Source: Balanoglossus misakiensis (taxonomy: Eukaryota > Animalia > Hemichordata). From it: 64,000 bases of DNA. Positions 10,301 through 38,870 of the stretch are shown here, piece after piece. The notes beneath the pieces were generated by a model, which saw nothing but the letters and a program-made list of their open reading frames with translations, did not search any database and had not been told where the DNA came from. How positions within the stretch are numbered: the stretch's first letter is position 1; each line of letters begins with the position of its first letter. Both the position numbers and the translations under genes were made by a program. Location: assembly GCA_040954595.2 (NCBI GenBank), contig CM082594.2, forward strand, positions 1,072,247 through 1,136,246, read 5' to 3'.

Positions 10301-13237
10301 ACAACATCATTCAGAACATACAAGGACACTCAAACCCGTCTAAAACAAACCCTGTCTAATCGGGAAACCTCTCTTCAACCAACAGTTTTTCCTAGTCCCT
10401 TTTACATAGAAACATGTTAATGTGTTGGTGTTCTGTTTAAAAGATTTGACTGTGTAATAAATATGGTTGTCACACATACACCATTAAGACAGTTCTGAAG
10501 CATCTCAGAATTGATACTGTCTTAAAAAACATGTGTGGACGGTGTAAGTGGTCCTGAAACGTCTCAGATTTGAGACGGCTCTGCCAGCCAGACCTGAGCC
10601 GGTGTAAGGATTAACACCTCTCCGCAACCCATTGTCTATGGGGCCGAGCCTCAGCGCCCATACATAAACTTTGTGTGTGTGGACACAACATGACTCAAAG
10701 GATTAATGCTCTGTGGTTAGCACTGGCAAATAGTGTCTCAAATTTTACCCTGTGTGAACCTGGTAAAAGAGGCATTGTGCCCTAGTGGCTAGGGTTGTGG
10801 GTTCGTTACCTAGACCTGGGCATTTGGGTAGTATTTGCCTGTTGGATGATATATGAGACACAGACATTTGGGTAGTATTTGCCTGTTGGATGATAGATGA
10901 AATAAAATTAAAAATATATAGACAAATAAACTGTGTTCTCCTTTCTTTTACAGCATTTGATTGTGAAAAGCCAGCACCACCAGTTAAAGGTATTTCCATC
11001 TGTAATGAGTTTGAGTCGGGTGTGTTCTGTCAGGTGGATTGTTTACCAGGATACAAGTTTGCAAGCCTGCCAGCACCTTACTATCTCTGCCATAGTGAAG
11101 GATATTTTAATCCTGAGAATCCAGACGAGGAATTCACCTTCCCTGGATGTTCAGGTGAGAAAAAAATGATTTGGTATCAGTAAAGAAATATAATCAGGTT
11201 GCACATGCACATTCAGAAAATGCTCCAAAGAGAGAGAGTTGTGAGAGGGGGTATTCCAGCATTGAGACAATTTTCTTTTAGTTATAAATGAAAAGAGAAA
11301 TATGAGTAATGCAAATTCTTGCTTTACAGTATGTCAAGGTTGTGATTACAGGTAGATAATTTGTTAACATCATATCTGCTTACCCCAATATAAAGCTCCA
11401 GTACATTTGAGCTATTTTCTTAATATTTTGTTCTGGGTAAGCAGCTGTAACTTTCCTGATTGGCTAATCGGTTTCGCAGTCTAAGTCAATACATCGTTCG
11501 CTAGATTGAAAATTGCATCTTTAACAAAATTTGTTTGTTTGTATTGTTCTACTGCAGCTCCTGGGAAGACTCAACGTGGAGTGAATTGTGGCGTGTCATA
11601 CAATTCACAGGCTGGTACATGTAACAATGGTGTCATCCAGCAATTGAGGATCAGTTTTATGAACACTATCAACTATCTGAATGATTTGTTTGGTATTTGT
11701 GGCGGTGAATGCAACTTTGATGACCTTGAAATAACCTGCAATGCCTCAAACCGAAGAAAGAGACAGGCTGATACTCAGCTTGTGGTTCAGTTCAGTTTCA
11801 CAACCAATGCGTGAGTAGTAATTGTAATTTTTCGAGTATTTTATTCCCCTTCTGTTCTATTGAAATGACTTTGGTGACATGTCTAGGGTACTGATCCCAG
11901 GCTGTGTGAGGACCAGCTCTGTATTCCCTATACAGCTGGTGTTTGCATTATTGCAAAATATTCCATTCATGCAAGTGAAAACAAATTATTTTGTGTCTTA
12001 ACACTCAAACATTTTCAGTTTTTGGCAACCCCATCATTTCTGCCCACCTTCCTTCATGTTGCGGCATCCTGTATTCTAAAGATTCGTGCATTCGAAATAT
12101 ACTGCAAAACGTGTTATTTTCGCGAGCAGTAAATTTCTGCAAAACATGCGCTGGTCAAAAAAACGTTAAAATAAAAAGTTGTGTAAAATGTTTTTGGAGA
12201 TAATGATGCAGTTAGTGAAATACGAGAACTCGAAAATTCGTCCTCACGTAACAGTCGCCTCTTTTAATATCGCGAAAATTTCCTGTCGTGAAAACAACCC
12301 AGTTTACAGTACACACTTCTGGTTGGTATTGTAATGTGGCATATGTAAGAATTTTTTGCCTGTTGTTTTATCCATTAGCTCTGCTGATGCTGCAGCTGTA
12401 GTTATTGAAGATGCAGTCAAGAAAGGTACTTTTGATACAGCTGAATATTCGGTCGACGCTGAGACATTACAAGTTGAAAGTACGATATTCTGTTCCAATG
12501 GTAGTGTTCTTGTTGGAGAAGAATGTGGTGAGTGCCTATACTCCTCAGTTGTTATGTACTTTAACCCTTTCACTCCCAGTTTCCTCTATAGAGGTCAAAC
12601 CTTACCATAGAAAACAATTGGTTTGGACTGAACCATGGTGGTGAAAGGATTAAAACTGTGTCCAAAATTAATATTATAAAAAGGTGTAGATGTTAATATG
12701 TTTATATCGCCTGATATGACCTGTTAGGTGGGCCGTATTGCTGCGAGTGTGGTTGTGAGTCGCAGTGTACAAATCAAAGACAAGTGTGAGTGGTAAATAA
12801 AACCCAACCAAGAGGTGATATAAGGAAATAATTGATTTGATATGCTCATACCAAGGAGGGACAAAGTCTCTTTCTCGCTGCCCTTTTTCCATTAATTATG
12901 TTTGATAGAAGACACAGTTAATGTTATTCTACATGTGGATATATAGTGAATCAACATTCAACCACACACAACTGCCATCCCACTTGTAGACACAAGAGTG
13001 AAAAACTGGCCAAAATGAATGCTGTGTGTTACAATTGTAGTTGTGTTTTAAACCATTAATGCATAATGATCAGTACATGAACAATGTATACATCTGCCTT
13101 CAACATTTTGTATTTCCACAGTATTGTGTCCTGAAGGGTCGTACCATGACACTGAGCTGAGTCAGTGCCATCCTTGTGCAATTGGATATTATCAACCCCT
13201 TGAAGGACAAACAGCATGCAATGCCTGTCCAAATTAA
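7396..13237 (+). CDS. Host gene segment upstream of the insertion (pentraxin, EGF, HYR, CCP exons and first half of the split exon)
   Basis: Half-exon 13122-13232 reads VLCPEGSYHDTELSQCHPCAIGYYQPLEGQTACNACPN and runs into an element-derived TAA at 13235-13237. Confidence 0.85.
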
Positions 13238-16200
13238 AGCTGCAAGCAGCGTTGAAGGGGCCCAAGCATAGAGTTAATAACCATTAGACTCCATTCAGGG
13301 TTGTACCATTCAAATGCGTAGGCTGTATTTGCTCTGGATGTGGAGATATGGGGAAGTAGGCAACCACCCGAAATGGATGTCTTACAAGTACAAACACAAC
13401 AACCAAAGGTGAACTTCTACGTTGTAAGTACTTCAGTTACTTCAAAGGTCAGCTGAGGGTATCCAAAAATTGGGCCAAAAATTAGGATTCTTATTTGGTT
13501 CATATTCAAGACAACGGAAAATCCTCGCTGTTTGGGTTTGTCAAATTAGATATGGCCATAATAATGAGTTACGCAAGTAAGTTACAGGTAGCCCCTAAAA
13601 TTTAGCATTTCATGACGCAGAGGGTCCTACCCTACCCCTCCAAACACCTGGCTATACATGATGTGCGTGCTAACATATGGAAAGCAGGTCAATGGACACC
13701 TGATGTCACCCAAAAATTTGACAAAAATGTTCATTCCTGTTTATGTCATGTGCAAGAAATCCTACATTTGCAGCCCTTTCACTTAGCCTACCATTAGGTA
13801 TGCACGTAATACATGAATCAAGCAGGTGTCGCAGGTATCCGCCTGTATTTGGCATTTCATGATAGTTTCGCTCGGAATACCAAAGCTGCACTTGTACAAC
13901 GGGCTGAGATATGGCACTGTACGACAGAGGTCATCCAAATCAACTTATACATTTGGGCAAAAACAAACTGACACTTACATTCGTCCCTGTGGAACAAAAA
14001 CCACACCTATTGCCCTGTTGGTTAGGCTGCATTCACAAACACCTCTGGAGGGGGGTGGGCAGGAGAATTGAGGGGGGGATTTGAAAAAATTTAGGGTATG
14101 TAAGGGGGGGATTTGAAATAATTTTGGGACTGTAAAGGGGGGGGGGGCTTGAAAACTTTGAGGACTAAATATTTATTTTGAGTCCACAAAAATGCAGTTT
14201 TGAACCCTTCATAATACAACATTTTCTAATGTGGGAGGGGAACACCCCCTCCCACACCCACCCCCGTCATTCATCAGCACCTTTAAATCATTGACTGTTT
14301 TATCTAGTGTCCCAGGTCAGGGGACTTGCCCCCACCCCATGATAACTTTGAGCAGCGACGGTTAAATTTGTCCTCCCCAACATACCGGTAGTTGAGTTAA
14401 TTTGCTTTTGCCGGGTTCATTAAAATGCAGTTGTGAACTCTGTATTTTATAAAATTTTCGTACGTGGGAGGGGGACACCCCCTCCCAAACCCACCCCCTT
14501 CACTTCTCGATTTACAATGTCTCCCAACACAGAATACTAAGTTAAAAAAAATAGAAACAATTATGTTCAGTTTTAATACCCACTGATAAGGGGAAACATC
14601 AGTTTCAAATTCTTTTCATGAGAGCGCTGTTTTTCTTTTTTACAAGATAGATAGGTGATGTGTTTTGCTGTGTGAAAGAAAATTGGGGGGGGGGGGATTT
14701 GAAAATTTTAGCAGTTCGGAAGGGGGGGATTTGAAAATATTTCGGGTTGTTGAGGGGGGCATGTGAAAATTAACGGTAAAAAAAATTGAATTCTCCTGCC
14801 CCCCCCTCCAGAGGTGTTTGTGAATGCAGCCTTAGTGTCCAATTAAATGTACAAAATCAATGACTTAGGCAGGTGCAACAGGTGACCCCGCCTTTGGTAT
14901 ATCTTTATGGTCCCATCCGTATATGCCCCCCCCCCCACGCCAAAGCTGCATGCATCTGCTGTGGATGCTCACTAAGCAAAAGTAGGTGAAATGTCACATA
15001 AGATCGCCCATAAGGCTGCATTCACAAACACCTCTTGAGGGGGGGGGGGGGAATTCAATTTGTTTTACCGCTAATTTTCACATGCCCCCCGTACACAACC
15101 CGAAAAATTTCAAATCCCCCCCTTCCGAACTGCCAAAATTTTGAAATCCCCCCTCCCCATTTTCTTTCACAGAGCAAAACACATCACCTAGTATCTATCT
15201 TGTAAAAAAAGAAAAACAGCGCTCCCATTTTTTATGTATTTGTATCCTGTGTTGGGAGACATTGTAAACCGAGAATTGAAGGGGGTGGGTTTGGGAGGGG
15301 GTGCACGTAAGAAAATTTTATAAAATACTGAGCTCAAAGCTGCATTTAATTAGAAAATTTTGTAAAATAAAGGGCGCGAAACTGCATTTTTGTGGACTCA
15401 AAATAAATATTTAGTCGTCAAAGTTTTCAAGTCCCCGCCCTTTCAGTCCCAAAATTATTTCAAATCCCCGCCTCAATTCTCCTGCCCCCCCCCCTCCTGA
15501 GGTGTTTGTGAATGCAGCCTAACTTGACAGGAAAATCGGACTTCATATTGATCCATTTGCAACAAATACCACACTAGCATCCCTTTCATTGACCCCACAA
15601 TTACGCATGCACATAATTGAGTTACGCAGGTGTCACAGGTGACCCCCGAATCGGGCGTATTATTTTGGTCCCATACAGCTGCATGAAGCTGCGTGCCATT
15701 ACGGGCGATCTGATAACCCCCACGGCCACCTGCGGGCCAACCCCCATACTGAACGTTCAGTTGCAACGTCACGACTGAAGTAGGAACTGTTGAACGGCAA
15801 AGAAGCCTGATCTCTGATTATTGCTGGTACCATACTCCCTTCGTGCAAGAAAATCATTGGTCTGCTGCCGCAATACATTGAATGTTAACCAGTGCAGGTA
15901 TTTAAGGGTGTCGAAAAGACAAGAGTGAGGGGCCAAAGTGCGGGACACGCACAGTGCAATAAATGGCACTCTGCGGGAATTCACGCACAATGCAATATAT
16001 TCGACTCTGCGGGAATACGCACACTGCACAAGATGTGGGAGGACCCTTGACTTTGATTACATTTGAATTTCGAGGAGTTCGATCGTGTTTTTGACAACGT
16101 CCGACGACATTCGGGCGAATGATCGGGCGATCAACCACCCACGATCGACATTTTCTACTTTCATGTTGCATTTCGAGGAGGTCGATCGTGTTTTTGACGA

Positions 16201-19200
16201 TGTCCGACGACATTCGGGCGTTGAAAATAATAAATGATCGGGCGATCAACCACCCACAATCGACATTTTCTACTGTCCTGATGTTGCATTCGTAAGTGGT
16301 AAACCCAATGACCAACAGAGCAAGGTCCGTTCCCTGCGTGTCGGATCACATCCCATCGCGCAACAATTTCGCTGGAGACTGTCGCTGCACTCACGCCATA
16401 TGCACATCTTTGCGTTCTAATTCGAGCGGGAAGTGAGTTATCCCGTCTATGCTTGTTCCGGAAAACCCGTGTTATGACGTCAAGGTCATTCATTGATACA
16501 AGATCGCACTGTTGACGTGCGACGCGTTTGCAAATCAAAATCCACGCAAACGATTTTCCGGGCAGGACTATGACATGTTCACAGGATGAATGCACTGCAA
16601 AAAACGTGATGTCTGCAGAGCATGTATGTGCCATCACCCATATGACAGGCTGCAGCTTCATGAACACGAGCTAGAAACAAAGGCCATGCGTATGTACGTG
16701 TGCACGTTCCGTGTCTTCTCCTTGCTATATGCATTCGCGTTCCGAAAACACACGGTAAAACTCATCAAAATGTGTTGTTATTTTATATGCGATGTCTGTA
16801 CAGTGTGCACGCAATTTTCGCCTTTTATGTGCCAAATAAACTATTGAAACTTCTGTTGTCATGCTCTTGTCTTGGTATTTTTCTTCTTCTTGGCATCGCT
16901 ATTAAACCTCTCTTGTACATATACGTTCAATTTTAGAGATAACGTGTAGGCCCCCTCAAAGAAAGCCGGTTGCCCCCTCAAAGAAAGCCGGTGTTGCTAG
17001 TTTGGCATTTGTTGCTAGTATTCTGAATATCTCCCCTGTGACAGCACAAGTCCACGAGCACCTGTGGTCCGAGGTCTGGGACCGTCGATTTTAAGTGTGT
17101 TAAAAGTAAAGCAAACTTAACCTCAAAACTGAATATTTTCCCTATACTTGAACATGCATAATTACAATAGAATAAATTAAAATAAAAGACTAAATGAAAT
17201 CAGATCTTTAAACCAAATAGTGTTTTGAATAGAGCAATTACTACTCTATATCATATATAAAAGACAAAACAAATACATTAAAAAAAATTTCCAAGTGTCC
17301 AAAAAAATTATTCTTTTGTTTTTATACATGTTAAGTCTATGGGCATTATTTCAGTCTATTTTGCAACAACATTTGGAATACTTAATGGCGTCCAATCTCA
17401 AAAGTGTAAACTTTTTTATATTCTAGAACATCTCATGATGGTTTCTGGAAAGTTTCATCTTTGAAATGCTTAAAATAAAAAAATAATCTTAAAAAAGCAA
17501 AGTGTATATTAAAAAAAGCTAATTTACAGCTAATTTACAGAAGTTTGCTTTTTGGTCAAAAAAGTGCTTTTATGTTAAAATATTTAAATGTAACTTTTGT
17601 CAAGAGTTTATAGATAGACACTCTACTTGTGTACCAAATTTCGAGGTCAAAGGTCAAAGGATAATGAAATCCGACATAGGTAAACCAACAACTATAAGCA
17701 ATGGCGAAGTTGACCTTGACCTTCGAATTTCAAAATTTTTTCACCACACCACATTAAAACAACTTATTATCAATCTATCCTGTAATTTTCAGTGGTTTCC
17801 AACTATATTAAGGGGGTGACACCGCGTACCCTAAAAAGTATGTTTTTTTCAATAGGTTTTTCCGCAATAACTTTTCAAGGTCAAGTTCAAAGTTGGTCAA
17901 ATTTTAGTATGTTATAAAACTCGCCGAGACCTTTCTGAAAATATATAGTTTGTTATGGTTTATGTAAAATTTAAAAGTACCTACCAAGAAATCCGTCCAT
18001 GCACAATTTGGACTTGCCGTCTGGAGCAACTTGCATATACCCACCAAGGCATTTTTTTGGCCTTTCTAAAAATGTTTTTTTTTAAAGGCTGGGGTTAGAC
18101 AGGGGACCAAAATCAATAACAACAACCTAAAAGATAACAAAATAAATCCAAACAATTTTTTCTAACCCTCTTTTTTTGGCCAAACAAGACATAAGTTGGG
18201 CATTGTGGGACTCGACCTTAAAAAACATGGAAGGGTTGACTTGTTTTTGTTGATATTTTTTGTTGTTGTTGTTTACATGTTTACCTACATTGTATCAAAA
18301 GGAGGGGTAAAAAAAACATTGGCAAGGCAGTAGGGTTAGAGCCCGAAATCTCAGGTCCCCTAATGCCCGTTGGACCCTAATTAGGGTTAGGGTTAGGGGG
18401 TTTAAGATCACATACTGGTACATGTGTATGTTTTGTGAGTTGTGTGATGTATTTTGTAGTACAAGGGATGTCAATACATCCATACAGGAGTGCCTATATG
18501 AGCGCAAGTCTCTTTTCAGGATTTCTCTGTAACACTTCAAATTTTTGACATTATCGGTGTCATCCTTGCACAAAAATTAATGACCCTCCCCTTGACAAGT
18601 GCCCAAAACGTAGCGGCCCTCCCCCAAACCGTTGCATGAGAAATGGTGACCCTCCCCCCAATCGCACCGGCCCTCCCCCCTTGTTAATTCTGACCAGGCC
18701 CTTACCGCGCGGCCGATGCCTCCCCTAAGTTGGCAGTAGTTTCGACTAGAATTTCCACTGCAAACCAAAACATGGTTCATGCACGCAAACTTATGTAAGA
18801 GTAAAAGCTCGGGTCATCAGTAACATGTGTCTGAAATATTGCATTTTCTTGTGTGAAAGTTTTGCCATCCAACGTGCATGTAAGGCTGTGCATGAATGTA
18901 CATTGTACTGCACTGTAAACTTGGACATTGCATTACCGCAAGGATTTAATTTCATTCCACCAACAAATCAGGGCCATGGGCAGATATTCACCCATTTAGG
19001 CCGAAACCATCACTTTTAGCTTTCAATAGTTAACATGACTTTAGTTGGGGTCTTAATCGGCAACGGGGCTGAAATCGGCAGCTTTACCTGCCGATCTTAT
19101 CCCTTAGAAGCCATGGTTTGTTTGTCAAGGCATGCGCGGGGACGTATTCGGCATGGTGCCGAATTCGGCACAACACCGGGACTAAAATAAAATGTTTGCT

Positions 19201-22200
19201 GATAAAAATGTTAATGGTGTTGCATCATTTTGTCGTTCATCCTGGAGTGACTGTGATCCTGTCAATCATATTGCGACAATTATTTTTTTCAAGGTTGTAC
19301 CAATAAAAACCTAACATATCCAATAGTGTTTGTCGTTTATTTATTATCTTATTTGGGGTGCCCCCGATGCCTACACATGTACATACTTCGTACTGTATTA
19401 CGTTCGCTTCTGCTTTTAATCTCGTTTGAAATGCCGTTTTCTTCGTGTATACGTTTGCATTTGTGCCTAATCTTGAAATGTTTTTGGGCTCACGTGATAA
19501 AACCGCGATTATTTGACCCTTTTTGTGAGATTTTTATTATGTGTTGTATTCTTTGGGTTCATTTTGTTTTACTGATAAGGGTTTTCCTTCATGTCTACGT
19601 GATGCTAAGATGCTCTATGTGAATCGGTCTGGGCGGGGTTCATCGGTACGCTCATTTTGCGCAAGGCAATCTGCGCCACTCAACTAATATTTCTCTATGA
19701 ACTGGTTGACATGTAGGATGAGTCGGTAGAAGGGAAAATAAACTTATAAGACCGTTTCATTTTATAAGCAGTCTCATTTAGAATGATGTCCCATCGGATG
19801 CAATACTTATGCTAAAAGTATACCTACTGGCACAGAAATTTAAGTTCAACCAAGACTTCATCGTCACATTCGACCGAGTTAAAACATAAATAATCACTGT
19901 GGACAAATACTGTGGAAGTTATATCTCACGGTGGTATTTCCTCCCGAGTAGAATGGTTAAAAGCACTAATAGCTCGATAATCGGAGTGAGAAAAACGAAC
20001 AACATTTACACCTGTTTTCAGTTATTGCCTTGTTCGTTTTATCACAGACAATTTGACTACTAGTATTTTTCTGTGGTTTTATTCCATGAGAGTAGCGTGT
20101 TGACTGAAGAACTTGTGGAGATCATTATTGCCTACATTTGTGAACTCTGTTATAGCGCTCAACAGAAACAAATTTTAAAACCTTGTTGACTGACATCTTA
20201 GTTGACAACCTTTTGCTTTCCCAAGTTGTAGGCCTACTCAATATATGATATTCATTTTGCAGTTTTTTCTCGAACAACTTCCTACCGATAAGGTCGTCAC
20301 CCGGTGACCAGCACACAGACTTGTACACCGTAACGCCATTCAAGGCCGTGATGTCGGGCGAGACTTAAAGTTATCAGAAATTGATTAAGTTCGTGGTTAC
20401 AACAACTCACACATATTCATAATTATAGGCCAATGTACCGAAATATCGTACGTTCGTTCAGTGCAGCACTCAAATGATATAGTTTTATAATAGGTCTGGT
20501 ATGTTAGTCTTGCCAGTTCGCGTTCTTATTGCCGAAAGTTGGGTCATTTAGCTCGCTATCATCAACGGTGTAGTATGGTAATGTGGTGATAGGACGACGA
20601 TGTAATAAGGGGTCAAAGGTGGAAGATCCTCGGAATCTGACGAAAGATGGGTGAGGGACGATCGTTTAGGGTAGCCTCGATTTCGTTGAGGACCGTCTGT
20701 AGCTCATCAACAGACACGAAGCGTCGACCTAGAACTTTTCTGTGAGATATTTTAGTGGGGAGCGCGTTTTGGTATAAAACACCATTCTACGGGGCAATTT
20801 GCATACAATTAGTGTTAAACACACCTGTTCTCGCACGTTTAGTACAGGGTAAAGGTCACTTGCCCGTCGGACAAAAGACTTTTATTTTTCACTTGTCCGG
20901 GCTGTCCGATCTTCTCTATGTCATGATGCAGTTCCCAAAGAAGTACCAAAGGCAACAGTGGCAGTCACTGACTGCACACTTTGACAAATTTCACACGAAA
21001 ACACAGATTAAAGCTGCAGTTGTTGCAACGTTTTTCGATCCCGTCACCAAGAAACGGATTTTTGTCATCCATGGCACCCAGCCACTTGCCAGAACCCTTG
21101 AAGCAAACGTTTCAACATTTCTGACTGTACCAGCGCATCCTAGTGATGATAATGATCAACAACCCCCAGAAAGCGTACTGCCAGATCTAAGAAACCACCA
21201 TAAGAAGAAGCTCTCTTCGTTCACTTACTATGATGTAAGAGAACTTTTACCAGCATTGGTAAAATGCACCACAAATCGTGCCCAACCTTTGTGGGACAGA
21301 CCAGACATGAAGCCAGTATGGTGGCCAGCCGAAACACCGTACTGCAACCCCAGTCGGCCCGGTAAAGTGGTTGCTTCAACGTCTTCGTGGGTCACGCGCA
21401 TGAAAGACGTTGCTAAGTCATGTTACCAGTATTATGGACAGGTCGAGTTGACAGGTACGTACCATTTAAACGGTTATTTAATTAGAATGGTGAAAGTTTG
21501 CTAGACATTACTCCTGAGAATGTATAGATTCAGCAATAAACAAAATCATCCGTTTTACACGAGCTATACATTCTTTTGAGATGAAGGCCTTGAAAACGAA
21601 CATCGACTGACAAAGTTTAATTAACCACAGTACCGAAAATGACGTTTTTTTGTTAAAAGTGGTTTTTAATTTTGTTCAGCTGGTCTCTTGGTAAGTACTT
21701 CTCTGCAAAACAGTGAGAATATTTTGGCTTACTAAACTTGTTCTCACTTTTTCACAGGCGATGATGAAGACAGTAGGCCTACTGATTGTCCGACTGGTGA
21801 GGGTGCAGCGGTTACCCGAGACCCACAACTTGAAAGCGATATTGCCCAATTTTTCTCAGGCAATAATGAAGTCAGTAGGCCAACTGATTGTCCGACTGGT
21901 GAGGGTGCAACCCAATATCCACAACCTGAAAACGATATTGCTGGGCATTCTATTATAGGTAAGCGTGTCTTTTATTGCAACTATAATGTAGATCGTGAAG
22001 AGTCATAGTCTACAAGGTAAATGTTTTTAGCCTTGACTGTAAAAAAGAAAATGTAAAAATCATACACCAGGGTCCAGTACATACATTTTTGTTCTATTCG
22101 CATCATACAGTAAAATTATTCGTGCAGATTCAAATTCGAAGTAAATTCCTCGATATCATCACTTGTTGCGCTTTTCTTGTTTTTTTTTTTTTTTTTTTTT

Positions 22201-25200
22201 TTTGCTGTTTGCGATGCATCGTACGTGTCATGTGAGACACTGTCGGGAGTTTGGACTTGGGTTTGTCGTGTCGAATTCACCTATGTCAAATTTATAAGCC
22301 ACAGTCCCTCAAGAAAGACGGTCGGGAATCGCCCATTGTTCGGACGTGCGAATGAGGGGATTAGCTGTAGGATGCGCATTATGGTCACGTGACCACCTTA
22401 GAGTTGCGTTTTTTCCCCTTGGAAGCAAGCGGCAGTCGCCCTACTATCTATGATTTTCCCGATATGTTAGTTATGTTTGTGGAGGAACTGTGTATAAGCC
22501 AACTGACATCATTTTGTAGGTTTATATGATTCCGCTGGCAATTTTCAGGATCTAATACATTTGAATGCACCATACGATACGTGACAATTTTATATTGAGT
22601 GTGCTCCGAGAAAAGTAACAGCGCAAAAATAGAGGACAGCGCGACATTGCACATTTATACGATATCGGATATTTATCGTCTAGTATCGTCTAAAACATTA
22701 AACTAGACTGTACTTTAACAACAACTTTGCCTGCTTCCCGACTATGTCGGACCTCAAAAATATCCGATAGTATCGATACTATCGATACTAGAGGCTAGTA
22801 TCGTCTAAAACGTTAAAGTAGACTGCACTTTAACAGCAACTTTGCCTGCTTCCCGACTATGTCGGACCTCAAAAATATCCGATAGTATCGATACTATCGA
22901 TACTAGAGTCTAGTATCGTCTAAAACGTTAAAGTAGACTGCACTTTAACAACAACTTTGCCTGCTTCCCGACTATGTCGGACCTCAAAAATATCCGATAG
23001 TATCGATACTATCGATACTAGAGTCTAGTATCGTCTAAAACGTTAAAGTAGACTGTACTTAAACAACAACTTTCAATACTAGACGATACGTGGTGTACTG
23101 ACCTCTTGAGCCGTCAGTGTGGATTTTGTGTTTTTAACGTTTGGCATTTTCAGTCATGTGTATGTGTACATTTACCCAATTTAGTTCTACAATATTTACA
23201 AAGGTCATTTTCATCTTTTCTCTATAAAGGCACAAACACAGAAGTTGGAGCAGTGCTATCATTCATACAGCATGAATCAGATCCTCACTACCTCACACAA
23301 GATCTGAGTACAATAAATTTTGAGGATCTTGGTAAGAAATATCCCTATTACAATGTATTACTTTCTTTATCACAGTGAAACCTCTCCAAGTTCTATGTTT
23401 AACCTCGACCATGTGGTGGAGTGATCGTGATTTAATATGTCTTAGCAAACTTAAATATACTTAAATATACTTAAACAACAAGCCAACCAACAGGGGAAAA
23501 CGGGTTGTAACTGGAGAGATACAGACTGAATTTCTTGCTTACAATCCTTTAATCAAAACAATCACTCTTTATCTGTCCATTCAGTATTTATCTCTCCTGT
23601 TACAAGCAGTTTGTTCCACTCTGGTCAGTTTGATTGCTATCATTGTCATTATGAATTTTGCAATTACTTAAGCAATAAAACACCCCCAGCCATGGTATAC
23701 CACGAGATTTTTGACCAGTTCACGACATATACGCACGAGCGATAGCGAGTGCGTATATGGAGTTGAACTGGTCAAAATCGAGTGGTATACCATGGCTGGG
23801 GTGTTTTATTGCTATTATATTATGCCAGTATATTGAAACTTTGCATATAACATTTTAAAAAGGCATTTTCTTTGACTATGATATATGACTGTGGTATATG
23901 GCTAATATATCACGGTCACGTGTCGTGTCTCGACCAATCAAATAGCGTGATTTACACCATCAATATACGGTATAATATAATAATTATTTAATAATAATGG
24001 TGTTAATGATTTTGTATTTGAATACACATAGTCATTTAAATGTGACTAGGACAATTATTATAGTTTAACCTTTGTTCAGTGGTTGTTTCATGTACTTCTT
24101 GTATGGAGAGAGGGATACCTCAGTGTTAAAAAATACCAAATTTTGCTATGTGTCTGTAAAAAGGGGTAAAAGCCATTATGTAGTCAATAGGTTTTTAATT
24201 TTTATGTTTTACCTGTGTTCTGATGACTTAAGTAAAACTATTGAATAATGTCAACCAATACACTTCTATATTTCATTTTCTTTTCAGGTTCACATCCCAT
24301 TCACCCATCACCCCAGCCAGCAACTCCATCAGCCAACAGTTCCATCAACACAAGTGCAGAATTATCACCAGTGTCTTACACACTACCACAGCAACAGCCA
24401 GCAGCACAAATCCAACAGCCAGAATCACCACCAGCAGCACAAATCCAACAGCCAGAATCACCACCAGCAGCACAAATCCAACAGCCAGAATCACCACCAG
24501 CAGCACAAATCCAACAGCCAGAATCACCACCAGCAGCACAAATCCAACAGCCAGAATCACCACCAGCAGCACAAATCCAACAGCCAGAATCACCACCAGC
24601 AGCACAAACCCAACAACCAGCATCACTACCGCCACGCCGCAGTCAACGGTCAGGAAGGAAGACCAGAAAAGTTCAAGATGATGAAGAACTGCAACAAGAG
24701 CTGGCAACCCTGAAGAAACTCCACCAAATGAAGAAATCAGGGGACCTTCTTGACCTGGTGCTCAGTTGCCCAATTCCCAAAAAAAAGCGTCGGACAAACC
24801 CATTCCATCTAGTGGCCCTAAAAAGACAAAATCCCACTGAGTACAACAGATTATTAACTGCATTTGAAGCATCAGAAGTTAGTGTGAATGTGGTTCTCCA
24901 GTTCATGCACCAGCACATAAAACAGTTCAAGAACCTGCAAATCGATCATGCAGAACAAGTTTTGGGCTTCATTTGTCAAAAACTCAACTTATGAGTTGAT
25001 ATTTTCATTGTCTTTTAACTCTTTTTCCCATTCTTGTCTTTCTGTGTTAATTAATGTACATTTCAAAACGCAGTTATCAATCTGTTGTATTCTGCGGGAT
25101 TTTGTCTTTTTAGCTGGGAAAATGGGAATTTGGTCAAAACTCGGTAACTTAATTATTGGTCAGATTGCTTTGCAAAGTGGTGTGTACTTTATTGAGACAT

Positions 25201-28200
25201 CATATAGATTTTTTTGTGGTGATATCATAAAATGACTAATTTTGGTGAATTTTTTATCTTTTTCCCAAAATCTTCTTTTACAAAAAAACTTTTCAAATTC
25301 ATAACAAAAATCATTTGAGGGTGTGTAGAGGTTTTTCATTTTTTTTTTTTTTTTGAATCATGGTAAGAATTCAATAGTATATTTTGGGGTGATTTTTGCC
25401 ATTTTTGGTCCAAACTCTCAGAACCCTCTACCCCCATTGCTTTTAAATTTGATTTGCAGGTTACCAGGTGTGTTCTCATAATGATTTACAAAATCTATGA
25501 TGAAAGTGTCAATATTTTGTGGGGGCAATATCTTGTATTTATGGTGCATACTTTCCAATTTTGATTTGAAAAAACTATATTTCTCAAAGTGTTGGGCTGA
25601 TTACAAATGTACTTTAGAATTTAAGTTGTGAGTTAATGGGATGGGGTTCTTTAAAATTGTAATGGAATCAAATCGTAGGTATTTCGGAATTTGGCTGTTC
25701 TATTTGGTGTATGTACAGTACACGTGCCATTAGCAGCTTATGGGTCAGTGTTTGCCCATTGATCTCTCTCTATGTGTGTGTGTGTCTGTCTGTCTATGTA
25801 CTTCAGTGTAGACTTTTTCTTGATTAATCCCTAAATGGGACCAGTGTCCTTGACGCTGTTTTTGACAGTTATCTTTGAGTAGTGATTGTTTTTGACAAAT
25901 ATGAACGGTATATTAAAATAACACTAAAGTCCACCTCGGGTGTGTGGTGTACTTCTTTATTCAATTTTATATACATGTGTGCCTGTGTAATGATTTGTGC
26001 ATTTCTTCTTTATTAACAAGTTTATCGGTGTACGGTAGTTCTCTTTTTTAAGGATGTGGTGGCCCTGAGAAGGGCCGTTTGATATGCAGAGCATACGTCT
26101 CTGAGACGCTAAAAAACTTCCATGAAAACACCTCCGTAGTTGTCCTCTGATGACTGAATTTCTTCTTTAGTACCCTGCGAACACACCTCCTATACATTCC
26201 ATCTCCCCATAGATGTATATGGCTGGTCTACATTCTCATTCTGATAACAAAATGGAAATTCGACACGTCAGTACAACAATACAATAAACTGTAAAACACC
26301 ACTTTCTCTTATGCATCTTGTTTTGTTTTGTCAGCACAGCAGCAATGTAAAACCATGCAGCAAGAATTTTACTGATACAGATGATAAAGCATCATGTTAA
26401 AGTTATCTTTTACCGTTTTCATCAGCACAGTTATAAAATCGCATGATTCCAAGCATCTCATGTCTTTGGGAATATGGGTCATCTTGTTACCTCGTGTAAC
26501 ACATCATCCATGGATTTGCCCTCTTCATTATGGACAGTTTGTCAGTACTTCTCAAAAACTGAAACAAAATAACAGACAGACTTTATATGACGGCAGTCAT
26601 GGGGAGTGACTGTGATGATGGTCTACCGTTCATAAATCTGGAAAAATATAGTTTTTGTTTTCTTGAAGTGTCTAATGCTGCAGTCACACAATCAACTGAA
26701 ACAGTCAGAGAATTAATTAATAGTATTCTGTGTAATGTAAGTTGACCACAATGAAAGCAAGAATGGTCCTAAATCAATATAAATCCAGATGGTTTCAGCT
26801 ATAACTCATTTGAAAAAATGTCCGAGCTAGACAGTTAAAGTGCGGTTTTCAGAACAAACAAAAGACCTTATACTTTATATCAGTCATTGCTTTCTGTTCA
26901 ATTAAATAGAAAAATCGGAAAAACAAACTTATCTATTTTAAAACCTTGAACTACAAGTAGTTCAGGTGACTTTTCTTCTTTTGATTCCAGATTGCAAGGA
27001 ACAGTCTGACATGGAAGATGAAATTATCTGGGGTCATATAAGATACTTGTGCCTTAATTTTCTGTAATGCTGCATTGCTCTGCTCACAGATCTGGGTATT
27101 TATGTTGGCCAAATTTCTGTTGTCCTTGTACTGTTGCAGGCTATAACCTGATGAACAACTGATCAGTAAAATATAAAAGAAGATTCTTCTGTGAAAATTT
27201 TAACAGTATAAAACATAAACAATTTTTTTCAGACAAATTGATATCGTTCCTTAGAAAATTGACACACATGCCCTGAATACATTTCAGATACCTGATTAAC
27301 AGAGCTTATGAGCCAGTCAGAAGTTGTAATTTGAGCAAACCTGTTTATGTCACCAGTCCGGGTTATGTCTCTGAGTGGAATAATAGAATTGACCAATCGG
27401 TGATTGCCATTGTGAAATTTGATTTTATCAGAGCAAAATCCTTTCCCTGTCTCCTACCTCCTAACTGACTCCAAATATGATGTGGTTAACTGGTCGTATA
27501 CTTCTTAGCTGTTCCAGTCAACTAAGCTCTGCAATTGCCAAACATAGATGATTTGAAAAATATTCTTTTGAGCTTTTTAATCTGATACTCACCCAATGTG
27601 GTTTTTCCAATGGAGACGATCCACTAAGAAAACTGTCTTCATGAAATAGTTTGGTTCTCTGAAGAAAGACAAAAAATCACTTCATTAGTTCTAATCTTTA
27701 TATTCTTGCTGAAAGGAGTAAGCAACGTCAATTCATCAAATTCTTGATTTTTTTTTTTTGGGGGGGGGGGGGTAAAACACAAAATTAACCATATGACAAG
27801 CTGACATCTCAATATGAAAAAATTGTAACAAAGTGGCTGCCAGACCACCATCTTGGATCATATCGCAAAAAAAATTGAGTTAAAGGCAAGGGTGGGCAAG
27901 CATAATTGAGCATAAAATAAAGCTTAGCCACCCTTCTCTTAAGTTTAACAGAAGTGTGGTAATCACATTAACATACAAAACAGTATATCAAGGTTGAAAT
28001 AAGACTTACCGATTTAAACAGTACTGATGCAGCCGACATGCATTGTCATATATGACAATGGCTGGAGGTTGTCTTAGTCTTGTTGTCATAATGTTGAATG
28101 GCACTTCGGGTGACTCCACTTGCCTCATAGCCTGGAAGCCATAGCAGAACCCATGTTGACAGAACACAGTGAAAATGCCAGGTGATAACGTAGGGTGTTT

Positions 28201-31200
28201 GTTGGAGATCTTTTGGCAAGTGTCATCACCATGTGCAAGTCTGTCTTTGTCTTGCCGGTACAGAGGTTTCCTATTAAATGAAAAGTGAAAGCATGATAAC
28301 TAAGAGAATGGCAATGGCATGCATAGCACATGGGTACATAAACTTCCATTTTGAATACATATAAACATGTATACAGAAAGGTATGTCTAAGTGGGAAATG
28401 AAAATTCACAAAAGTAATGAAAATAATGCAAAAAGTGGCAGCTCTAGAGGCTTAAGACAGACTTCAATTAACTTTCAAGTTACAGTGAGATATCCTTACC
28501 CATGAAGCTTTGGTAGGCAAGGGAAGCAAGCTACAGGGTCTTCTATTGGATCTGGATATTGCACAGTACTATCAGGTCCCTGGTTACATACTTTGTATGA
28601 GCTCCTCACTCGTAACAACACATCTCTAAGAAGGCGACGCACTTCTCTTGGGATACCATGAGGATTGTGCCCGAAATGTGACAGCAATTTGAAAATAAGA
28701 GGAGCATCTTGCTGTACAATTTCAAGTTCCCCTTGATGTCTGCTGTCAAATATATCGAGTCCGTGTATTATTTTCTTGATGACATGTTTAGCCTGTGAAT
28801 CTGGGGTCAATTGCAGAAGAGCACTTGCAGGCGAGTTTTTTGACAAATCTTGAAGAAATTGGCAGAACTCCTTTGGGGCTAGCAGATTTCTTCCGTGTCC
28901 ACTGACGAGTTGGAGAAATTCCATAAGCGAATGGAGGTGACTGTACTTTCTCATCAAATTAATCATCACTGTGTACTCAAGGGGTGTAAGTGGTTTCTCA
29001 GCTGGCTTGTTGGTACTACAAAACTGTAATAACAGTTTCCTGACCTTGGCATTTGGTATATACACTCGGTCACAGTGACGTGTACCAATATCCAAAGGCT
29101 GGCCTTGGTCACGTGATGCCCTCTCTGGGTCTGGAAGTTCTTGCAAGAGGCGTTTGTTCAGTCCTACACTCGTACCATCACATATCAGAACAGAAGGCTG
29201 CAGCTCACATATAGGGCATTGGTATACAGTGCCATAATTTATGTCCAATAGCCTTGCAAATGCATTCCAGGCATTCCTATGTTTGTGGTATTTCAAAGAA
29301 ACAGACTCTGATAACATAGCATGTTTTTCAGAGTAGGCCCTATTTAAGAACAGAAAGAAAGATTAATGTCAGGTGATTGCCAGGAGTGAAAGAAAGTTTA
29401 TAATGTTTATCTGTTGTAACATTTTTATACTGTACCTTCTCTGATAAGAGCCCCCAAATTAATGGGGGGTGGGGGTGAAAAGAATACAACCTGGTACATC
29501 AAGAAATGTGTTTTTGGTGGGCTTCCTAATCACCCTGTAAATTATATCATGGGAAAAATGGCGCTCTTGAGCATGTGACAGGTCTAAACAATTATCGGAC
29601 TGGTAAAAGCAACAATGAACTTTTGAAATTTGATGACTGACTATATGGGTAACAGCCTTCCCTAGAGAATATTTAGACAAAAATTTTGCTTACCACCCCT
29701 TCGTTCAAGTATTAATGGGTAATTTCAGTATTGATCTTTCCTTGCTGAGCTACCAAATACATAAGTTCCCTAGTCAATGATTATATTTTTAGAAATACAA
29801 AGTATATGTACTTACCTATGGAAAGATGCCAACGGATTTCTGGACTCTACCATCAAATGAAGGTAGGAGAGTAATAAACTGTAGTGAATAATGTCCTTGT
29901 TGTTCAGATTAAACATCAAATCTCCATGCCCATCATAATGCAACCTGCACATACATGGACCAACACTTGGACGATAGTACACTGCAAGGAAAATAATGAC
30001 TATGTTAATATAATTACCAATACATGTAGGAGATCATTAGATAAGTGGGATGGAAGTTGCGTGTGGTCGAACGGTGATTCACTATATAGCCATATGTAGA
30101 ATAATATTCACGGTGTCTTGTATCAATCAAACATTTTAATGGAAAAATGGCAGTGATCCAATGCAACCTTAAACCAATGGTACAGTAAATAAGGTTAACT
30201 TACCCTTGATAGTTTGTTCCTCTCCTTCTACATAAACATGCTGAAGTGAATGTGTCTCATAATACACAATGGCATCTCCAACAAGCCAATGTTGTTGTAC
30301 AGGGTCATCAACATCCCATGCATGTCCATGTTGACAGGTAGAATGGGGGCCAGCACTTGGTATCTCGGGAATTAGATTATGCTGTACAGGCTGTTCTCCA
30401 CTTTGTTGTTGTTGAAACTTTACCTTCAGAGAGTCATCAAGAGGGTATGAGATTGGCTTAAATGACACGCTTGGGAAAGTACTTTCTTTCAAAGTGCGTT
30501 CAGTTTCTTGAATCTCAACCTCATTTTGTCCACACCATATTCGGTATTCTTCAACATGGTCACATGTGGTTCTACCATATGCGCAGGTCTCACAGCTAAG
30601 TTTTTTACCAACATGTTTGTTCCTCAGAGATATTATATGTGTGTCTTCACCTATGGTAACACTAGTCAGGAACGGATTCAATGACAGGCAATCAACAATG
30701 ACTGATGTGTCTGCAGAGTTGGGGTCCACTTCAACAGGTACATCAGGAAAAAGTTCACTTGCTGCCCAGGCATGAAGACAGTATTTATTTTTTTCAGTTG
30801 TGATGAACTCATCAAAGTTTTCTGGTATCCCACGCTGAGATGAGGATAATCTGGCTGCTTGGATTAACCCATCCTGACATGAACATGTATACAGGAACTC
30901 CTGAGACGTACTCTGCACACTGTAAAATCGCAGGTTACGTTTGACAATAACGTGCTGTGATATCAACTGCCCAGTCTCAATTTCACAATCTGACAATACA
31001 TATGTATTGCCAGATGATAGCTCCCACTTTCTGTTCTGGGCTTGTAACTGATGCAGGTATTCTTCCCTTGCGTTATTGCCAATTGTACCAACTACTGAAG
31101 ATATTCTGAAGAGAAACAAACAAAACTTGGTCACATATAAACATTTATGTTCACTGATTCCTCTAAAAAAGTATCTATTGTTTTGAAAGAGCATATCAAT

Positions 31201-34200
31201 AACTAAATAAATTTTCATTGTACTCAACACATATGATACTAATTAAAAAAGCAGATCTGACCTAACCATATTTAAACACAGAAATGTAAAAAGAAATTAA
31301 CAATAGGCCAATAAAGTGTCATGTGTGATGGCAATTTTAGAGAGGCAGTGCTAGAGAAATTGATATTTGACTAAAATGATATACAAACCATTACATTACC
31401 AGCAGCTAACCTCCCCCCCCCCCCATTTTTATCTCAAGTAATGTACACACAAGGCAGATAAGTCCCCCATAAACCTGGCTTCCTATCAGGTGTTTGCTGA
31501 TAACATGCCAAATTTAAAGTAGGGATACATAACCAAAGTAAGCTGTTGTAAAAATCAGTGAAATTTCCATATTTGTGTTCTTGGGGCAATTTTGGCCGTT
31601 TTTGGTCTTAAATCATTTTTTTCTCTGATTGATTTGAAATTTGGGACTCAATTTTTATAACACATAAATGTTTGTGTACAACTTCTATTAAATCCTGATA
31701 TCACATTTTTTTGTGCTTTTCTTTGTTAAAAATAAAACTAAAACCCTAGTTAGAAGGCCTAACTCCAGTCTATGGTCTCCAGTCTTGGTGATCGAGTGCC
31801 AGAGATCAATTCCCCTGCTATGACTGATTACCCTTACAGAGTATTCATTGGCAGGATTTTTTTGGTTTGAAATAAAATAGTAGTTGCTGAAAACACAGGT
31901 CTTCAGGTACTTCCCCCCAGTCGTCCCACAATGCAATGCGGTTTTCAAGATGGCGGTTAATACAGTTTTGCCCTGAGAGAGAAGGGAGGACACGATCACC
32001 CCGCCGGGATAAATCAATCAAACTATTAAAAGAATTAAATTAATGACACCTATCAACGCCTGTTGTCAGACATTTAATGAGCGACTTTCGTACCTGAAAA
32101 GGGCAAATTAATACCGGCCTTTGTCTCCTTCACGATCACATGATACTGCACGCTATGTGTTACAAACAGTGCAACTCTAATATATACTTACTCAAAACGT
32201 TGGCGCTTTACGCTTTTAGCGATCTCCTGGTGTGGCCGCTTCTTTCTTCGCACATTCGATGGATGGGATTCAAAAAATCGACGACGTTGTTTGCGATCCA
32301 TTCTCTATTGAAATGTAATCTATAATAACGAAGTACTGCCAAACTATATGCATGACGTAACGCTATTTAAACGTTTCATTTCATATCGTTGAGGGCGCCA
32401 AGAGTCCCGCAGAGTCGAATATATTGCATTGTGCGTGAATTCCCGCAGAGTGCCATTTATTGCACTGTGCGTGTCCCGCACTTTGGCCCCTCACTCTTGT
32501 CTTTTCGACACCCTTAAATACCTCACCAGTGTAGCCAGGTCTAGATAGAAACATTTGAACGGCAACAGCTAACAAACTCAGCGTAATTCAATAAAACGCC
32601 CTAACACAGCCTGAACTCGGATAATGTGTTATCCCAAAATTCATTCCGTGGAAAATAATCACTGGTCTGTTTACGTATTTCACCCGATTTTCCAAGGACT
32701 ACGGCAACCCGCCAGAAGTGAGTAGCCTGCTAATGAGATCTCCACAACATTACGTAATGACGGTCAAAGTCCGATGCCCCAGTGTCCGTCCTCAGCCCAC
32801 CAAAAATGCGAAAAATATTACAAAAATCTTCTTCTCAAAATCGACGTAGCCTAGGACCTTGAAATTTGGCACAAAGGATTTTGGCCACATGGTCTACAAA
32901 AATCGCGAAAAGAATGTACATTCCCCCATTAACGTGCAAATTAGGTCAATTTGAAAATTTCGCTCGATTATAGCCACCAAGTCACGTGACTAATTACAAA
33001 TTCAAAGGGCAGGTGCACTAGTACTCATGGGCCCCAATCATCGTGCCAAACTTCATAGGCGCAGGTGCCGGAATTTCAGAGAAAAACGGGAGCAAAAAAA
33101 CGACTCAAGAAGAAAGAAGAAAAACTCCAGCAATAACAGAAGGGGACCAAGCGCCTGAGGGCGCTTGGTCCCCTAATAATGGAGTCACCAGGGGAAAGAG
33201 ATCATTATCCATCTTGCAGTGTTTTGGTATGTATAACAGAAGGCAATATCTCCTCCTCGTCCACAGCCATAGCCTAGTATCTAGCCGTATTTTGTCCGCT
33301 TTGCTTCCAAAACTAGCATCTAGCCTCACTCATGCCACTGGCCCGATAAAACCCCATACCCCTTGCCGGGAATTGTGACGTATATATCAAATTATTGTGG
33401 TGTGATCCAATATGGAAAGAATGACAATTGGAATGTTCATCTCTTTGGTTGAAAAAATAATTTTTCAACAATGATGTCTATTGCAGAGAGGTGCGATGTT
33501 GGTCACTACTTTGACAACGGGACTTCTCAGTGCCAAAGCTGCCCCATTGGATTCTGGCAATCAGAAGAAGGAAAGTTTGTGTGTAATACTTGCCCAAAGG
33601 GAATGCTTACATTAGTTGAAGGAGCTACTGATGAGTCACAATGTCAGGGTAGGTACTTGTGTTATTTGCTATTCTTGACTATCAATCACATGATCTGGCC
33701 ATGTGACGTACCCATGGCGTTATCATTTGTTAGTGACAGGCAAGCAATATTTCGGCATCCAGTAAACTTTTTTCCGAGTAGGTTTTTACTTTAGAACCGC
33801 CAGATATGTAACATATTCAACAGTTTAACAAATTCACGTGAGTGAAAAGCAGATAATCGTGAATATCAAAAAATTAATCTTCTCAATTCCAGAGGTATGT
33901 AAATCAGTGGGAGTCCAACTTAGTGTCAATGGGTCTTGTGAGTCGTGTCCCATGGGAACCTATCGATCAAATGCTGAACTTCAGCCATCTTGTATGCCGT
34001 GCCCATTTGGCTTCACCACAAGAACAGTCGGTTCAACCTTAAGTGAAGATTGTAATGTTCGTAAGTATTATGTATACAACTTTTCATGTTGTATCTCAAC
34101 TGTACTGAACTGAAGGTTGTATTATTGTGCCTCAGTTGTTCAGAATAATGATAGTCCTCCAATTTTATTCTATGCTCTTTTTCCATTCCATCAACAGCTT

Positions 34201-38421: not shown

Positions 38422-38870
38422 CACAGGGGGCTGCAAACATGAAAGTTATAAATGGCGGAGTTCCTGCATTTTCCCCCAATAAACATTAATTGATGAACAG
38501 TCTTTGTGCTTGTTTATTTTTCTGTGTTACCTCCACCTGTCTTAGCAGTTGCTAATCCAGAATACAAGCTATTGCATTTCCCATTAAGCACCTGCTAACG
38601 ACTTAATCTGTGTGCCCCATCCACGGATTTAGTGGATTAAGTAAACATCGGTCAGTTCTCACTTGGTAAGAGAATACCCAGTACTCGCTGACCGATGTTT
38701 ACTTTATTAACTTAATCCGTGGATGGGGCACACAGATTAAGTCGTTAGCAGGTGATTAATGGGAAATGGATAGCTTTTATTCTGGATTAGCAAATGATAA
38801 GACAGGTTGGGAAAACGCAGAATGGAACGTACTTCGCCATTTATAACTTTCATGTTTGCAGCCCCCTGTG
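38422..38870. mobile_element. Fold-back MITE with CACAG termini (second copy 47826-50684, interrupted by the Crypton)
   Basis: CACAGGGGGCTGCAAACATGAAAGTTATAAATGGCG and its reverse complement at the two ends; almost the whole element is self-complementary. Confidence 0.8.

Follow-up and report, generated by a model that had tools for sequence, protein, structure and literature searches.

KDZ/Zisupton elements are among the least characterized DDE transposons, and only Zisupton is reported to have been well described with respect to ends and target-site duplications (TSDs) (PMC12730594). The canonical Zisupton structure is reported to consist of the KDZ domain, a CxC4 zinc cluster, and SWIM (PMC11343200), and the fish Zisupton is reported to have a CxC7 domain (PMC12062965). 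Fungal Zisupton consensus sequences start with CAGATATG or CGGATATG in five of nine rows from a supplementary table (Table S1), and the same source gives TSDs of 8 bp for Zisupton and Dileera, and of 7 bp for Kyakuja, which is without terminal inverted repeats (TIRs) (PMC12730594). Here, we describe a KDZ transposon of 16.6 kb in a 64,000-nucleotide stretch of the hemichordate Balanoglossus misakiensis (assembly GCA_040954595.2, contig CM082594.2, positions 1,072,247 to 1,136,246, forward strand; this whole stretch is called the window, and positions are counted from its first letter). An annotation made from the letters alone (the original prediction) had proposed a two-gene element of this size with defined ends, and the TIRs, the TSD, and two open gene models were all recovered. 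What the locus offers is an intact element of an animal, its ends known exactly; a rule for the termini of the family, with a TSD that varies between 7 and 8 bp; and a recurrent second gene, whose fold was until now known as that of a host transcription factor, NRF1.

The element spans positions 15895-32524, with the 7-bp TSD ACCAGTG directly outside, at 15888..15894 on the left and 32525..32531 on the right. Its TIRs (15896-16014 and 32405-32523) were said to be identical over 119 bp, and they are indeed 100% complementary over 119 nt, with 16,390 nt between them; identity falls to background level immediately beyond. They form the sole long 100% pair among the 25 longest listed of the 64 inverted-repeat pairs in the window. 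The left terminus (15895..16014, plus strand) consists of a terminal C followed by the TIR (5′-CAGGTATTT...) with its 36-bp subrepeats, and the right terminus (32405..32524, minus strand) of the TIR and a terminal base (5′-GAGGTATTT..., reading inward). Two subterminal direct repeats follow on the left (16068..16275, plus strand), where the end is rich in CpG (observed/expected ratio, o/e, 1.27).

Since the flanks read ACCAGTG followed by C on the left, and C followed by ACCAGTG on the right, the duplication had originally been given as 7 bp, or as 8 bp with one mismatch. The second version was rejected. Four other bounded insertions, one at a locus termed L082 and three in G004 (see below), have the same C.AGGTAT / G.AG(C/G)TAT asymmetry, and the terminal C on each side was therefore assigned to the element, leaving a 7-bp duplication in the window copy. 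All five bounded insertions have asymmetric ends of the form 5′-CAGGTAT...ATA(C/G)CTC-3′ and exact TSDs flush with these ends, of 7 bp in the window, 8 bp at L082, and 7, 8, and 7 bp in G004, so that a TSD is present throughout, whereas a uniform length of 8 bp did not hold. Two of the G004 copies would also allow the terminal base to be counted into an 8-bp TSD, which the window and the third G004 copy do not; the simplest rule is thus one of fixed asymmetric ends and a stagger of 7–8 bp.

The insertion appears young because its TIRs are identical, its frames are open, and only 13 differences in ~7,600 letters separate it from the eight longest X1 contigs shown. Both element genes are covered at similar depth by X1 contigs (~200–250) and X2 contigs (mostly 700–1,240), which hints at ~5–6 copies of the element, contig depth being a lead and no true copy number. 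A sequence variant at 24333-24352 was seen in contigs of depth 50 (X1) and 180 (X2). Contigs of both sets that join 16346 to 32438 possibly represent a short, deleted, non-autonomous derivative, and are likewise a lead only. The full-length element is presumably autonomous.

Both gene models are predictions from splice signals and homology. The transposase, assembled by scripted exon joining on the minus strand, has seven exons with GT-AG borders and encodes 850 amino acids (aa) without an internal stop; its ATG (position 32301) lies 104 nt inward of the right TIR, in agreement with the intact seven-exon gene originally placed ~100 bp inside that repeat. Exon 1 (32192..32301) contains the ATG and a predicted basic stretch resembling a nuclear localization signal, and is spliced in frame to exon 2 (30204..31105), which encodes two SWIM-like CxC/CxxC...CxH motifs. 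The CxC4 cluster is encoded by exon 3 (29816..29981); exon 4 (28500..29339) provides a CxxC motif, the first catalytic residue, D447, and a helical insertion, and exon 5 (28010..28270) a CxH motif, an ESP motif, the second catalytic residue, D748, and the KDZ match. A DxxHxxxH motif in exon 6 (27593..27658) is followed by the catalytic E807 and the stop codon in exon 7 (26951..27158). Of the domains named in the earlier reading, KDZ and CxC4 were recovered as weak single-exon Pfam matches, both below cut-off (KDZ in exon 5, E 3.9e-4; CxC4 in exon 3, E 2.3e-3), and SWIM was recovered as motifs only, exon 2 having no match to Pfam SWIM. The KDZ score fell below the cut-off because only a single exon could be given. 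The assignments are firmer in homologs, for which the KDZ domain (PF18758) is precomputed: P0177 lies above the cut-off for both KDZ and CxC4, and CxC4 is at or near the cut-off in P0157, P0159, P0177, and P0191.

RefSeq proteins of Amphiura filiformis and Glandiceps talaboti share 42–45% identity with the transposase over 630–800 residues. When the C-terminal part of the Amphiura homolog was used as the query, 42 relatives were obtained at E ≤ 1e-20, among which the named ones represent acorn worms, amphioxus, a brittle star, molluscs, and one green alga. The introns, together with the nearest homologs, suggest an animal host, perhaps one close to hemichordates. Across an alignment of 59 rows, D447, D748, and E807 are kept in 58/58, 59/59, and 58/58 of the rows with a residue at the position. 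The zinc-binding Cys and His residues are invariant by the same count, including those of the two N-terminal SWIM-like motifs, which were called by motif and are kept in 24–33 rows each. Structure was modelled on P0155, a Ptychodera flava homolog with 46% identity (AlphaFold, pLDDT 87.9). The model aligned best to DDE transposases and integrases (ISCth4, with a middling Z of 8.3, rmsd 4.3, 216 residues aligned), and nearly all of the top 31 structural-alignment rows were RNase H-fold enzymes; a Foldseek search with it gave no match at E ≤ 0.001. The modelled homolog indicates that the transposase has a DDE catalytic core of the RNase H fold. Intronless KDZ-type transposases were also noted, two in tandem on a metagenome contig (L031:2115-10609) and one in a 57.8-kb IMG/VR record (L081:8675-10849).

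The KDZ domain, the DDE core, and the N-terminal CxC4 zinc cluster identify the element as a KDZ DNA transposon, and its domain content and termini suggest that it likely belongs to the Zisupton branch, although not to the fish type. The original view that it was "probably not classical Zisupton" stands with respect to the fish element, but not against the canonical set of SWIM, CxC4, and KDZ, or against the CAGGTAT-like fungal termini. The fish Zisupton transposase carries SAP and Ulp1. In contrast to the fish element, the 850-aa window transposase had no Pfam match to CxC7, SAP, or Ulp1 in the five of its seven exons and the 11 homologs scanned; HMG was likewise not matched. Like Zisupton as described, the element is large, has TIRs and a TSD, and encodes its KDZ transposase, with SWIM and CxC4, in several exons (PMC12730594, PMC11343200, PMC9297572, PMC12062965), and the start of the element, CAGGTAT, resembles the reported fungal termini. 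It differs from Zisupton in that the TSD of its family is 7 or 8 bp instead of 8, in the fixed C/G asymmetry of the terminal bases, and in the separate gene of the NRF1 fold.

KDZx1 of Cryptococcus deneoformans also combines a KDZ, CxC4, and SWIM transposase with a second open reading frame (ORF), but it is described as a fungal element of 6.4 kb with an 8-bp TSD, no TIRs detected, and a second ORF of unknown function (PMC11343200). Kyakuja and Dileera share the KDZ domain and the presence of an accessory gene (TET/JBP), and Kyakuja has a comparable TSD of 7 bp (PMC12730594). However, Kyakuja is listed with CA..TG ends and without TIRs, whereas the window element has 119-bp TIRs, CA..TC ends, and a family TSD of 7–8 bp; Dileera is listed as starting with GACCTTT, with an 8-bp TSD (two of six mentions in the supplement), and its Cryptococcus members have CxC1 (PMC12730594, PMC11343200). 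Their cargo is an enzyme, while that of the window element is predicted to be a protein of DNA-binding type. By these listed features, the element is neither Kyakuja nor Dileera.

The second gene, for which an intact frame convergent with the transposase had been claimed, was confirmed on the plus strand as a model of four exons, joined by script, encoding 513 aa without an internal stop. Exon 1 (20923..21454) encodes the whole NRF1-type dimerization domain and the DNA-binding domain, and matches Pfam Nrf1_DNA-bind (PF10491) with E 2.1e-14 (54.2 bits, curated cut-off 23.5). In the AlphaFold model of this exon (pLDDT 88.6), a helix, hairpin, helix dimerization part is joined to a DNA-binding part, such that both NRF1 subdomains are kept; the top Foldseek match was NRF1 (8K4L, E 1.4e-7), and the significant matches in the PDB were NRF1 structures only. 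Exon 2 (21758..21958), predicted to be acidic, and exon 3 (23230..23331) are predicted from splice signals and frame, and exon 4 (24288..24994) encodes seven copies of a Q/P-rich 11-aa repeat, a basic RRSxR motif, and the stop. Homology support for exons 2–4 comes only from this short basic motif, which lies near the end of five of the eight divergent RefSeq relatives checked and of none of 77 canonical proteins; the C-terminal region of ~100 aa in exon 4 matched no Pfam family.

The PF10491 match above the cut-off, together with the fold, places the partner in the NRF1/Ewg fold family. Proteins of the NRF1/Ewg/P3A2 group (PF10491; PDB 8K4L, 8K3D) consist of a MADS-like dimerization domain, a flexible linker, and a DNA-binding domain, and NRF1 is reported to recognize TGCGC half-sites, with spacers of 0–7 bp tolerated, the DNA being read by R206, N242, and R244 (PMC10810270). 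The window partner shares this architecture and keeps the equivalents of R206 and N242, but R244 is replaced by Ser, identity is ~22%, the whole domain lies in one exon, and the gene lies inside a transposon. In an unrooted tree of 41 domains, from which G004 was left out (it was included in a quick tree), 20 randomly chosen canonical NRF1 proteins formed their own clade (support 97/96) with the transposon-linked domains outside. The partner domains are on average 15–23% identical to these 20 proteins, as compared with 59% among the canonical proteins themselves. The window partner, being outside the canonical clade and having Ser for R244, is not an NRF1/Ewg ortholog. Exon 1 matched 149 NRF1-like proteins in a HMMER search of 1.84 billion representatives, whereas a word-index search with the NRF1-like exon found none; the closest named relatives are hemichordate proteins (38–48% identity) rather than canonical NRF1. 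In two further proteins, P0110 and P0119 (mollusc, annelid), the NRF1-like domain is joined to a region that their source names C2H2-type.

The association of the two genes is, with high probability, a heritable trait of the family. For 26 of the 149 NRF1-like proteins and four of the 42 transposases, accessions were compared, further transposases being placed by LOC number; the RefSeq lists are incomplete as well as clustered, and gene position is approximated by the order of accessions. Consecutive accessions, on contigs of equal length, were found at two loci of Ptychodera flava (XP_070537884-887 / XP_070537888 and XP_070541358 / XP_070541359) and at one of Amphiura filiformis (XP_072021477 / XP_072021476). 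A genome encodes proteins by the tens of thousands, and chance alone would hardly produce even one such pair. A further Ptychodera flava pair lies on one scaffold, 144 accessions apart.

Both genes were also found together between TIRs with TSDs in independent copies of other families, which extends the proposed pairing, in which an animal KDZ element has an NRF1-like gene of its own, from Ptychodera flava and Amphiura filiformis to L082 and to all three G004 insertions. Neither of the losses that would have refuted the original prediction, of the second gene or of the TSD, was seen in these bounded copies. The locus L082 belongs to a set of GTDB genome bins (L082–L086) that are labelled bacteria and contain large, intron-bearing contigs; contigs filed in this way were considered eukaryotic because their genes have spliceosomal introns. 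The L082 element measures 5,442 bp and has TIRs and an 8-bp TSD; its transposase gene stands head-to-head with an NRF1-like gene of two exons, which scored 57.2 bits against a hidden Markov model built without L082 (best of 500 shuffles, 5.2). Its insertion splits another ORF (L082:7281-7702 and 13145-13471), within a 15-kb segment that is duplicated on the same contig; this ORF, without a Pfam match, is possibly BEN-like. L082 and L083 were counted as one insertion, their flanks being 99% identical over 15 kb. In G004, three insertions of a 41–45-kb element are >99% identical and have different flanks, and the NRF1-like exons are convergent with the transposase in all three, with a joined score of 19.9 bits (best of 500 shuffles, 4.7). 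The L082 and G004 transposases are 35–46% identical to that of the window. The large G004 elements also contain an 11.5-kb satellite (180 bp, 64 copies) and a retroelement-like ORF of 1,344 aa. In G004:C89:490985-532064 (L119, L120, L139, L140), the NRF1-like exons are followed by OTU, PHD, Ulp1-like, and SET exons, and these chromatin domains may belong to the same protein as the NRF1-like domain or to a separate one. In a degenerate second family (G004:C58), whose element ends were not found, a single WWP exon and homologs of the OTU/PHD/SET exons lie upstream of the transposase.

These independent insertions bear on a further explanation, in which the two genes would be a domesticated, immobile pair of host genes, and the TIRs and TSD relics or chance. 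A single insertion site, that within the window, was seen in this species, with neither a second flank nor an empty site, as such a pair would have it; perfect 119-bp TIRs with a flush TSD, the distinct flanks and TSDs of the three G004 insertions, and the ORF split by the L082 element all speak against immobility, and this explanation is scarcely credible.

The partner is not universal among related elements. It was present in four of the six families with at least 20 kb of context, the window included, in one of them as a single weak exon. No NRF1-like match was found in 20.8 kb around the distant transposase of the IMG/VR locus L081, or at 80 metagenome loci (80 of 156 kept), 75 of which are shorter than 8 kb. 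The blanks of a separate profile search of genome contigs mean little: with PF10491 it missed even the L082 partner, and with alignment A1 it found one exon only. The seven paired transposases do not group together (7/7 changes) in a quick tree of the transposase homologs found here, which omits four rows that were long or half-filled. This scatter, together with a weak co-divergence of the pairs, fits an ancestral partner or repeated gains. It is equally expected from an ancestral partner as from passive cargo, that is, an NRF1-like gene taken once or more from host NRF1 and of no service to the element. Large KDZ elements do acquire varied cargo, and the layout of the genes varies, being convergent in the window and in G004 and head-to-head at L082, as cargo would allow. 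However, all paired partners fall outside the canonical NRF1 clade, and they retain open frames and a WWP/NP/W/CY core at 13–36% mutual identity, beside transposases that are 31–46% identical, which implies long retention under selection. Passive cargo is therefore improbable.

A service at the element ends is suggested by the distribution of spaced palindromes. The motif TGCG-N3-9-CGCA occurs six times in the window (1.28 expected), and five of the six copies lie at the element ends: three on the left (15939..16021; TGCG-N5/N8/N6-CGCA, the third extending beyond the TIR) and two on the right (32432-32480). The left-end copies are candidate binding sites for the partner. The stretch with the right-end palindromes has a CpG o/e of 1.16, as compared with 0.30–0.38 in the transposase exons. 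The ends of the L082 element contain arrays of spaced palindromes of a different sequence, and the L082 partner has different residues at the reading positions. Conservation of the NRF1-type TGCG/CGCA motif in all ends was considered and rejected, none being found in the L082 TIR zones.

The element may thus be pictured as a two-gene KDZ transposon, likely of the Zisupton branch, that moves by cut-and-paste through its DDE enzyme and encodes an NRF1-fold dimer, which would bind the element's own ends to aid movement; as a whole, this picture has about an even chance of being correct. Cut-and-paste is suggested by the TIRs, the TSD, and the fold. The element would be cut out at the tips of its TIRs and inserted with a stagger of 7 or 8 nt. 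The partner would dimerize via its MADS-like domain, with two tethered DNA-binding domains reading the spaced palindromes (TGCG-N5..8-CGCA) as NRF1 does, and, once bound, might recruit or position the transposase, or keep the CpG-rich ends accessible. No SAP, HMG, or other recognized DNA-binding domain was found in the transposase. We lean slightly towards end binding as the partner's job, on the strength of these sequence features. The Myb protein of Harbinger elements binds subterminal repeats, and the division of labour proposed here would be analogous to that between the Harbinger transposase and its Myb protein. If so, the element would resemble PIF/Harbinger, described as a two-protein system (PMC12730594), in that a second gene (Myb/SANT there) supplies sequence-specific DNA binding, but the PIF/Harbinger transposase is unrelated, its TSD is 3 bp, and its DNA-binding fold is another one.

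Several observations weigh against this proposal. The five end motifs derive from ~3 repeat units, which the TIR mirrors, and are therefore not independent; they match the NRF1 half-site in only four of five bases, and the G004 ends are ~50-bp TIRs without an array of spaced palindromes. The NRF1-like exons of G004 continue into OTU, PHD, and SET exons, which suggests a role in chromatin. In the incomplete RefSeq lists, a partner neighbour was seen at only three of seven comparable transposase loci, a transposase neighbour at only three of eight comparable divergent NRF1-like loci, and an NRF1-like neighbour at neither of the two Glandiceps transposases; adjacency of accessions is, moreover, only a proxy for adjacency of genes and says nothing on shared TIRs. 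The G002 transposase, which is without the N-terminal part, had no NRF1-like match within 100 kb, and the co-divergence of the pairs is weak (six pairs, rho 0.51, exact Mantel p 0.08). Subterminal repeats are also often bound by the transposase itself.

The main rival, nearly as plausible as end binding and held here as a tentative alternative, is that the partner serves as the element's own transcription or anti-silencing factor, acting on the transposase promoter or through chromatin enzymes, outside the cutting complex. The partner has the architecture of a transcription factor, with a DNA-binding domain and a long acidic, Q/P-rich tail, and the right-end palindromes lie 130–180 nt upstream of the transposase ATG, within the CpG-rich stretch. 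NRF1-like exons stand beside OTU, PHD, and SET exons in two G004 families, fungal KDZ elements are reported with TET/JBP enzymes, and Vandal elements are reported to encode sequence-specific anti-silencers (PMC12730594). A promoter function is harder to reconcile with L082, where the head-to-head genes share a promoter region but have the palindrome arrays at their distant 3′ ends, and with the left end of the window element, where the same motifs lie 5 kb from any gene. End binding and a transcriptional or anti-silencing role could coexist.

A bolder possibility is that the element represents an undescribed, ancient, animal Zisupton-like lineage with an NRF1-fold end-recognition subunit, and that host NRF1/Ewg/P3A2 is a domesticated descendant of its gene family. 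This is rather unlikely, although the tree allows it, since canonical NRF1 forms one long-stemmed clade amid more diverse transposon-type domains; the tree is unrooted. The compact 5.4-kb L082 element and the window copy make it testable whether NRF1 originated in a transposon or was taken up by one, and likewise make KDZ excision in cells and the role of KDZ accessory genes accessible to experiment. Genes of acorn worms and brittle stars to which RefSeq gives the names "Ewg-like" or "NRF1-like" may in fact belong to transposons. No published KDZ/Zisupton element with an NRF1-like gene was found in the literature searched, which left most subscription papers, Repbase, and Dfam outside, and "NRF1" is absent from the supplement of PMC12730594; the family is possibly already catalogued with its second gene unannotated.

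The element sits between exons of a plus-strand gene of Ephrin_rec_like/EGF repeats, whose Ephrin_rec_like (GCC2/3) repeats and EGF exon flank it on the two sides (10857-13234 and 33453-35513). A stop at 13235 closes the frame of the upstream Ephrin_rec_like exon when 33 of the 48 profile positions have been covered, and either a break in the host gene or another splicing pattern may account for this. An X3 contig leaves out 33648-33891, as expected of a spliced host transcript, with almost no cover on the element exons; it was not used as evidence of expression. Repeats are nested in the element introns at 30043-30156, 23680-23960, and 22678-23073; among these, one is shared with 12875-12985 and 35155-35263, one has very high depth, and one is a 115-bp tandem repeat. 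Elsewhere in the window, a 335-aa ORF with DUF3504 and Phage_integrase matches (48702-49706) marks a tyrosine-recombinase element, which we take to be Crypton-like. Pieces of a long interspersed nuclear element, which encode a reverse transcriptase split over two frames and have an ORF for an endonuclease, occupy 44676-45811 and 55405-57000, and a hairpin-like repeat of ~300 nt is present in two copies (38520-38822 and 50334-50636). The window ends in a satellite (61474-64000) of at least 29 copies of an 86-bp unit with 99% matches.

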